DNA from: a virus
Lineage: Duplodnaviria; Caudoviricetes
Direction: 5' to 3' (one strand)
Length of the DNA: 64,000 bases
Virus record (IMG/VR): IMGVR_UViG_3300048854_000113
Location: 6,999-70,998 of that record
Position numbers and translations under genes: made by a program
Shown: positions 41,487-42,731 of the stretch, piece by piece
Position numbering within the stretch: position 1 is the stretch's first letter
Layout of the letters: each line of letters begins with the position of its first letter
The notes under the pieces: model-generated
Told to the model about the DNA's origin: nothing
The model's database searches: none
What the model saw: the letters and a program-made list of their open reading frames with translations, nothing else

Positions 41487-42014
41487 ATGAAACGCAATGC
41501 AATCGCAGCAGCAGTAATCGCAATGTCCGCACTTTTTGCAGTCGGACACGCAGAAGCAGGAAGCGTATCAACGGCGCAAGGCATCGCCGCACAAGGCGAG
41601 ATTGGCGGCCAGCTTCAGACCTTCAATGGCTCGGGCAATGTGAGCGTAGGCAGCAACTCATCCGGCAGCGCTGTCAGCGCCGGCGAAGTTCTGGGTTACG
41701 GCGGCTTCAATCAGGTGGCTGGCGGCAATACGATCGGCACCGCAGCGGGAACGGTCGGCTTCGATCTCAACGGCGCGCAGGTTGGCACGGTCACCACGCA
41801 GAACAGCTCGTCGTTCGGTCACGGCGATGTCTACGGCAATGTGCCGATCACTGGCTCGAACGGTTCGATCGTCACTGGCAATCAGTCGTTCGGCAAGGTC
41901 GACAACACGGCAGCAGCAGGCGCGAATTTCTCGACGACGGCAATCGGCGCGGAACTCGCAGTGCAAGCAGCCGGCGCCGTGCAAGCCGTGGACGCAGTCG
42001 CGTTCGCCCACTAA
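41487..42014 (+). CDS. Secreted Gly/Ser/Asn-rich protein (putative fibre/adhesin subunit)
   Basis: SD GAGGAG; Sec signal MKRNAIAAAVIAMSALFAVGHAEA; mature part has few charged residues and no Cys. Confidence 0.8.
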   Translation: MKRNAIAAAVIAMSALFAVGHAEAGSVSTAQGIAAQGEIGGQLQTFNGSGNVSVGSNSSGSAVSAGEVLGYGGFNQVAGGNTIGTAAGTVGFDLNGAQVGTVTTQNSSSFGHGDVYGNVPITGSNGSIVTGNQSFGKVDNTAAAGANFSTTAIGAELAVQAAGAVQAVDAVAFAH

Positions 42015-42039
42015 CCAGCGCTGCTCAACCCTGAAAAGA

Positions 42040-42070
42040 GAAAAGCCCTAGGCGGCAACCCAGGGCTTTT
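42040..42070. terminator. Hairpin/terminator between the two secreted-protein genes
   Basis: AAAAGCCCT...AGGGCTTTT. Confidence 0.6.
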
Positions 42071-42098
42071 CAGACCAACGCACTTCGAGGAGATCAAC

Positions 42099-42731
42099 GT
42101 GCAAAAACGACTCTACACGATAGCCGCAGTCGCGGCAATGTTTTCGATAAGCGCCTTCGCGGATGTTACTGCAGGCTCGTCGAGCGCCGCGACAACGCAA
42201 AGTGCTGCGGGCGCGAACAACGCAGGAAATGCTCAGGAAATCATGTTCAACAACGGCGGGGACAGCACCACGACGCTCCACACAACGCCGACGGTTTATG
42301 TGCCATCGCCGGCCAACGCACCCACACAAGACAACTGCGACATGTTGGGAACGATCGGCGGCTCGATCATCAATTTTGGCGCGGCTGGCTCATATGTCGT
42401 GCACGGCGATCTGTGCGAGTGGAAGCAAGGCAAGCGAGCGCTGGAAGCTTCCGCCGCTGGTTGGCGCGCTCTCGCAACCCAGCCAGGCATGACTGACACC
42501 AGCAAGGATCTGGTCGGCGCGACGGCAACGAATCTGATGAAGGCAGGCATTCACATGCAATGCCTAAACAGCGATCGCGAACGTGCGGTGCTGATGAAAA
42601 CCGATCCGACTCTGTGCGCCCCGGTCGCAGATCTCGCGACGATGGATCACCGCTTCAATCAGCCCGTGAACTACGGGATTGATTACGCGGGACGCACTTC
42701 GGATGACACACCGCGTATCGCAGGCAATTAA
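42099..42731 (+). CDS. Secreted four-Cys protein
   Basis: SD GAGGAG, GTG start; signal MQKRLYTIAAVAAMFSISAFA; Ser/Thr-rich linker; four Cys. Confidence 0.8.
   Translation: MQKRLYTIAAVAAMFSISAFADVTAGSSSAATTQSAAGANNAGNAQEIMFNNGGDSTTTLHTTPTVYVPSPANAPTQDNCDMLGTIGGSIINFGAAGSYVVHGDLCEWKQGKRALEASAAGWRALATQPGMTDTSKDLVGATATNLMKAGIHMQCLNSDRERAVLMKTDPTLCAPVADLATMDHRFNQPVNYGIDYAGRTSDDTPRIAGN

Follow-up and report, generated by a model that had tools for sequence, protein, structure and literature searches.

A conserved pair of secreted-protein genes in the early region of a soil Burkholderia-type phage, with a possible role in the host envelope during infection

What might a phage gain by sending two proteins out of the cytoplasm early in infection? 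The question is raised by two adjacent genes, here called A and B, in the IMG/VR virus record IMGVR_UViG_3300048854_000113, a record of 70,998 bases of which positions 6,999 to 70,998 were analysed (64,000 nucleotides, referred to below as the window, with coordinates counted from its first letter). The carrier is a soil Burkholderia-type phage. An initial annotation of this DNA had read the pair, by analogy to curli and to holdfast-anchor proteins, as the subunit and the nucleator or anchor of a surface fibre. Here we report that A and B almost certainly form a real, conserved secreted module, that the curli analogy is unsupported as a claim of membership of that system, and that an exported protein layer protecting the infected cell is our best but still tentative account of what the module does.

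Gene A (41,487–42,014, plus strand), supported by its open reading frame (ORF), its homologues and its ratio of non-synonymous to synonymous substitutions (dN/dS), encodes 175 amino acids, of which residues 1–24 form a predicted signal peptide and 151 remain in the mature protein. Its Shine-Dalgarno site, GAGGAG at 41,473–41,478, lies 8 nt before the ATG, and its N-terminus, read by eye, has an n-region with K2 and R3, a hydrophobic core and the residues A-E-A before G25. Mature A consists of 19.9% Gly, 15.2% Ala, 11.3% Val, 10.6% Ser, 8.6% Thr, 7.9% Asn and 6.6% Gln, which together make up 80% of the chain; it contains no Cys and only 8 charged residues in 151 (one Lys or Arg, seven Asp or Glu), in keeping with the Cys-free, nearly uncharged protein of the initial annotation. 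Nine related A proteins have invariant Gly, Thr and Ile positions in common when aligned; at the level of sequence, A is more than a low-complexity chain.

Gene B (42,099–42,731, plus strand) encodes 210 amino acids from a GTG start, with GAGGAG at 42,087–42,092, 6 nt upstream. A signal-like N-terminus (residues 1–21, again read by eye) ends in A-F-A before D22 and is followed by a Ser/Thr/Ala/Asn-rich stretch, a four-Cys core and, near the end of the protein, the motif D-H-R-F-N-Q-P, which is conserved in the alignment of close relatives. Automatic gene calls start B at a later ATG (197 amino acids; window positions 42,099–42,140), removing the signal peptide. We prefer the GTG because all homologues have the longer N-terminus, and the GAGGAG site fits this start too. 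The linker and the four Cys pointed out in the initial annotation are thus both present, and the latter (C80, C106, C155 and C173) are invariant in all eight close relatives; among 35 wider relatives C80 and C106 remain invariant, and C155 and C173 are at least 90% conserved. The earlier description of two adjacent genes with strong Shine-Dalgarno sites and, as read by eye, Sec-type signal peptides therefore stands, its coordinates being exact.

Both genes carry the mark of purifying selection. When a viral contig (L003) is compared with Caballeronia sp. dw_19 (L004), the two loci nearest to one another, dN/dS comes to 0.10 in A and 0.08 in B, and we conclude from these comparisons of sequence that A and B are real genes maintained by such selection. 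Matches in a large protein collection were few, one for A (38% identity) and seven for B (44–64%), and an exhaustive HMMER search using the B profile yielded five full-length representative clusters at E ≤1e-30 and about 115 more distant proteins, mostly matching in the N-terminal part (up to profile position ~110–140).

The treatment of the two genes as a pair was upheld wherever it could be examined. In the set of ten close B relatives, four loci end at a contig edge upstream of B, and in all six with upstream DNA B is immediately preceded by a secreted, Gly/Ser-rich ORF that lacks Cys, which tblastn detects with A in five. A match at E ≤1e-5 was found in 86 of 400 scored genomes of a Burkholderiaceae sample, from which 30 loci were retrieved; an A-like ORF precedes B in each of the 24 that have a B-like ORF of 171–234 amino acids, with L015 (127 amino acids, three Cys) as a weak case. 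B-like genes are also present in four cultured Achromobacter phages, and both of those examined, phiAxp-2 and vB_Ade_ART, have an A-like gene immediately before the B-like one. Finally, all 16 testable contigs among 22 further viral ones are paired, 14 with the A-like gene upstream and two with it directly downstream, two of the 16 being duplicates of loci already counted (L050 corresponds to phiAxp-2, L058 to the L003 contig). When 401 genomes were sampled across the phylum, five had a match, of which only two were new, both partial. Phages carry the cassette in non-structural parts of their genomes: next to recombination genes in the window and in L019, flanked by queuosine and DNA polymerase genes in vB_Ade_ART, and amid small unnamed genes in phiAxp-2.

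The two cultured phages have a cassette laid out like that of the window, with a secreted Gly/Ser-rich protein of about 164 amino acids, a GC-rich stem-loop and a secreted four-Cys protein of about 180 amino acids (orf52 and orf51 in phiAxp-2, ART_00072 and ART_00071 in vB_Ade_ART). Their A-type proteins are 35–36% identical to the window's A and have the conserved Gly, Thr and Ile positions in common with it, whereas their B proteins belong to another branch, ending in ...Y-T-P-G instead of D-H-R-F-N-Q-P. The ORF table of phiAxp-2 gives "-" as the function of orf51 and orf52 (PMC5037462). Our literature searches, which covered titles and the beginnings of abstracts, found no description of the cassette in print.

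No curated family covers A or B as far as their sequences can be matched, which agrees with the initial annotation, where no characterised family had been recognised. Searches of Pfam, NCBIfam, PADLOC (E ≤0.1 for A and B) and the sequences of solved structures returned no family or structure match for A, B or their relatives, the best values against solved structures with the two profiles (E 3.9 and 0.86) being meaningless, and tblastn found no match for A or B among phage records, nor for B among plasmids. One phage protein family, phrog_20531 (PHROGs v4, function unknown), was matched by four of the 35 wider B-like proteins (best E 1.2e-10) and not by the window's B at E ≤1; having no known function, it explains nothing about B. 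ALK_LTK_GRD appeared in three of the same 35 proteins with a best E of 0.0013, below any cut-off. Atlas matches linked A to DUF6322 and YfaZ clusters (0.89–0.90) and B to nameless viral clusters (0.86–0.89). They serve as leads at most; hmmscan confirmed neither DUF6322 nor YfaZ in any of 20 A-like proteins.

Some indication of where B may act comes from its longer relatives. Ten longer B-like proteins, chosen from 120 profile matches, were scanned, and three of them (P0039, P0063 and P0078) end in an OmpA peptidoglycan-binding domain, the B core forming the N-terminal domain of some OmpA_C proteins. The window's own B differs in this respect, as the Pfam scan found no OmpA_C domain (PF00691) in it. 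The fusions in its relatives favour, indirectly, the anchor-like role that the initial annotation gave to B. In the Burkholderia chromosomal loci L036 and L048 (the latter at 7,558–12,896 of B. cenocepacia replicon NZ_CP091013, which is filed as a plasmid) a secreted protein of 553 amino acids holds the four-Cys core (hhalign 97.7%, E 2e-12), followed by a long Pro/Ala-rich tail. This protein is preceded by two to three secreted Gly/Ser-rich small ORFs and, in L048, followed by another secreted ORF and by a sigma-54 activator of the VpsR type. Such small ORFs together with a four-Cys-core protein of 290–560 amino acids characterise the chromosomal relatives L036, L038, L045, L047 and L048. VpsR-type regulators control biofilm matrix genes in Vibrio and Burkholderia (PMC5552954); no link was found between the chromosomal regulator and BerB. 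Taken together, the OmpA fusions and the chromosomal form point to the periplasm and wall zone and, weakly, to matrix-type regulation. It could be, although we consider it unlikely, that A–B is the phage-carried minimal form of an undescribed Burkholderiales envelope fibre or matrix system, whose chromosomal form would comprise several secreted subunits rich in Gly and Ser, a B-type protein lengthened by a Pro/Ala-rich spacer and one more secreted protein, with a VpsR-type regulator nearby.

The original proposal was that A passes the outer membrane and forms polymers at the cell surface, giving an extracellular fibre or functional amyloid that B nucleates or anchors. The pair does resemble curli CsgA/CsgB and the Caulobacter holdfast anchor HfaA/B/D in setting a major protein, with a predicted Sec signal, rich in Gly, Ser, Asn and Gln and free of Cys, beside a minor partner, although the gene order, major before minor, sets it apart from them. 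The composition of A, which is also rich in Thr and almost uncharged, and the order of major then minor gene with a stem-loop, together with the regulator just described for the chromosomal relatives, of a type that controls biofilm matrix genes (PMC5552954), would suit a fibre, and a cluster bearing HfaD does occur in the Atlas list for A, at rank 26 and with a score of 0.79, which is below a meaningful level. Nevertheless, several results tell against this proposal. CsgA and CsgB are paralogs, and A and B are not: a common origin was considered and rejected, since hhalign of the A-like against the B-like profile aligned only 20 signal-peptide columns. The curlin repeat family, Curlin_rpt, belongs to Pfam-A. 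The Pfam-A scan found neither this repeat nor another fibre family in A or in any of 20 A-like proteins (E ≤1), and no curlin repeat in 35 B-like proteins (E ≤0.1). A has no strong sequence period either, Gly at lag 12 giving z 1.6 and the best signal being hydrophobic residues at lag 6 (z 3.7). Furthermore, no outer-membrane channel, accessory or usher gene, of the CsgG/CsgE/CsgF or HfaB type, was found among the window ORFs around the pair, which encode unassigned small proteins, a PD-(D/E)XK nuclease, an FtsK-gamma protein and similar, nor in the cassettes of other phages, which consist of the two genes. Export of A beyond the periplasm is thus unsupported, and with no repeat, no paralogy and no channel gene the curli analogy lacks support as a statement of membership; we regard a fibre outside the cell as improbable.

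The C-termini of the A-like proteins suggest two further possibilities. A ends in F-A-H, and in about 27 of 31 A-like proteins, by reading, an aromatic residue or His lies within the last four residues while the rest of the sequence diverges. These tails resemble the C-terminal signal of outer-membrane proteins, and A could accordingly be a small protein of this kind inserted by BAM (similar to Lom, Ail or OmpX), with B as its periplasmic partner, the pair altering the cell surface during infection or in the lysogen. A mature length of 151 residues fits an eight-stranded barrel, and the structural neighbours of the Atlas model of A are outer-membrane barrels, with TM scores of 0.34–0.47; however, all of these scores are below 0.5 and the model itself is poor (pLDDT 0.37, pTM 0.23). 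Pfam and NCBIfam gave no match to an outer-membrane protein family. The hydrophobic content is low, 14–28% across the A-like family and 24% in A compared with 31% in lambda Lom, and hydrophobic residues do not alternate: in a crude test, their autocorrelation at lag 2 gave z −3.4 for 21 A-like proteins, −0.7 for A alone and +1.9 for Lom. Because of this contrast between the family and Lom, A does not read as a membrane barrel in its hydrophobic pattern, and we consider an outer-membrane protein distinctly unlikely.

The same tails could instead make A a periplasmic decoy, whose aromatic C-terminus engages envelope quality control (DegS-type PDZ sensors or BAM) so that the host reduces its receptors among the outer-membrane proteins, while B modulates or protects A. 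C-termini of the form Y-x-F are linked to DegS, and the high expression of A implied by the stem-loop would suit such a role. The tails are variable, however, comprising F-A-H, N-F-Y, S-Y-S-Y, M-H-W, W-V-F-P, F-N-P-F, H-W, F-P and G-N, and the A-like proteins of L006, L055 and L056 have no aromatic residue or His at the end; moreover, a decoy gives no role to the conserved positions in the core of A, nor to B. In our estimation this explanation is very doubtful.

A two-gene architecture is also that of a secreted bacteriocin-like toxin (A) with its helper or immunity protein (B), and microcins include secreted proteins that are rich in Gly, Ser and Ala and free of Cys. Against this, the signal of A is of the Sec type and not a double-glycine leader, no ABC transporter for export lies near the pair, B appears to be a soluble exported protein and not a membrane immunity protein, the pair sits among the non-structural genes of plaque-forming phages, and PADLOC and NCBIfam gave no match. 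Of the explanations considered, we give this one the least credence and regard it as highly improbable.

The space between the two genes holds a GC-rich stem-loop of 14 pairs, seven of them G-C (42,040–42,071, plus strand). A GC-rich stem-loop occupies the same position in all seven close loci, with differing sequences, and 20 A–B intergenic regions have a mean z of −2.34 against shuffles, nine falling below −2 and two near zero. A proper U-tract is present in few of these stem-loops. In the window the U-run of the plus strand falls inside the stem, so that the structure is not a canonical terminator. We suggest that it may act as a leaky attenuator or as a 3' stabiliser of the A message, which would yield more A than B.

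The surroundings of the pair form a lambda-like immunity region, as judged from library scans and reading of the ORFs, with a Cro/YdaS-type gene at 38,868–39,284 (minus strand) and a CI-type repressor with helix-turn-helix and S24 domains at 39,169–39,939 (plus strand). In the region 40,448–40,757 the hexamers TTGCAT-N17-TATATT, read by eye at about 40,680–40,713, make up a PL-like promoter, which is absent from the list given by a promoter scan of that region. With two overlapping operator-like TTTCYWGCAT repeats (40,675–40,684 and 40,693–40,702), found by eye and by motif count, the promoter element spans 40,675–40,713 on the plus strand. This repeat occurs seven times in the window where 0.31 would be expected, and six of the seven copies form three pairs, located in the cro/cI gap, at the PL-like promoter and at 54,476–54,503. 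The last pair has a spacing of 18 nt, the same as the pair at PL. Given the paired repeats, a repressor-controlled leftward early promoter is well supported, and with such a promoter upstream early, CI-controlled expression of A and B is plausible.

We can now return to the question of what the pair does for the phage. Our tentative proposal, which we hold with low confidence and well short of an even chance, is that A and B build an early exported envelope layer, with A in excess and B as its wall-proximal partner, which protects the infected cell. Upon infection or induction both proteins would be exported to the periplasm, the stem-loop making A the abundant and B the minor product. B would be a disulfide-bonded periplasmic protein close to the wall or the outer membrane, where it would hold or organise A; the wall-proximal role is suggested because relatives fuse the B core to an OmpA-type domain or to a long Pro/Ala-rich spacer. 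A, putatively a self-associating, beta-prone chain of almost no charge that ends in an aromatic or His tail, would assemble into a layer or mesh of protein within the envelope. The benefit to the phage would lie in protection of the envelope, most likely, by analogy, through the exclusion of superinfecting phages or the masking of receptors. A functional precedent is provided by early phage exclusion proteins of the periplasm or outer membrane, namely T4 Sp and Imm and T5 Llp, and the early-operon company of the pair (the CI-type repressor, the Cro/YdaS-type gene and the PD-(D/E)XK nuclease) also counts for the proposal. A and B would share with T4 Sp and Imm, T5 Llp and lambda Lom a phage origin, export into the periplasm or outer membrane and, Lom excepted, early production; those proteins differ from A and B in being single and small, not a low-complexity chain with a partner, and have no sequence relation to them.

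Several observations weigh against an exported protective layer. The signal peptides of A, B and their homologues were assigned by eye, from n-, h- and c-regions and A-x-A sites. PHROGs searches with A and B reached only E 0.34–0.48 and returned no exclusion-annotated PHROG, and neither protein has sequence similarity to a known exclusion protein or to a PHROG that bears a function. OmpA fusions are limited to three of the ten longer forms among the 120 matches. As for the hairpin that the initial annotation credited with favouring A over B, its conserved position means that it could do so, but the window's stem-loop taken alone is not stronger than shuffles (z −1.2 and −1.8) and has no U-tract after the stem, so that any influence on the A:B ratio is conjectural. 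The earlier claim that the genes lie under a CI-repressed PL and are silent in the lysogen can be kept for the promoter and its operator-type repeats; on the silence there is the reservation that the scan found no terminator-like site on the plus strand between cI and PL, so that read-through could give some expression in the lysogen.

Small membrane peptides were originally said to flank A and B, and both ORFs exist, but only the upstream one recurs in other loci and, apart from that one in a small sub-clade, they fall outside the conserved module. The upstream ORF (41,322–41,435, plus strand; 37 amino acids with one hydrophobic, helix-length segment), known from the ORF list and tblastn, is an optional accessory of a sub-clade, with homologues (43–46% identity) 53 nt upstream of A only in L003 and L004; a small hydrophobic ORF is similarly placed in three of 30 loci, and L057 has one unrelated ORF further off. 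The downstream ORF (42,734–42,820, plus strand; 28 hydrophobic amino acids, from the ORF list) had no tblastn match in any related locus retrieved, is not conserved and probably does not belong to the module. In the metagenome locus L005 the gene after B begins 3 nt past the end of B. After B in the window, ORFs of 90 amino acids (42,817–43,089) and of 64, the latter hydrophobic (43,138–43,332), have homologues after B in L005 in the same order (58% and 27% identity, respectively), and this common order indicates that the two phages share a longer segment of the early operon. Directly after cI, a gene at 39,945–40,448 encodes a UPF0547 zinc-ribbon membrane protein with a faint PADLOC match to PglX (E 0.0009); it occupies the position of lambda rexAB and may for this reason be expressed in the lysogen. 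Further downstream on the plus strand lie genes for the PD-(D/E)XK nuclease, the FtsK-gamma protein, an AAA protein and an RNase T-type exonuclease. Downstream of A–B in the related loci L003 (5,019–8,219) and L004 (8,917–12,519) we also observed, by reading the sequence, an apparent diversity-generating retroelement, in which a reverse transcriptase and an Avd-like four-helix protein accompany two to three proteins whose C-termini are DUF1566/C-type-lectin-like; a ParB-like protein of about 700 amino acids lies upstream.

The A–B cassette is found repeatedly in phages, temperate as well as plaque-forming, whose hosts are of the Burkholderia, Caballeronia or Achromobacter type, and bacterial chromosomes carry it too. 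To our knowledge, the early exported phage proteins that alter the envelope are single, small and folded. As two cultured phages, phiAxp-2 and vB_Ade_ART, carry the cassette, its function is directly testable. If the pair blocks superinfection or masks receptors, it would bear on the design of phage cocktails against Achromobacter and Burkholderia, and if it forms a self-assembling envelope material, it would add a new kind to the structural proteins of bacteria. Should the cassette instead be the minimal form of an undescribed Burkholderiales system, phages would be coating or gelling the periplasm or surface of their hosts, thereby shutting out competitors, and the proteins involved would make up a self-assembling class that is new among bacterial envelope proteins and unrelated to curli, Fap or pili.

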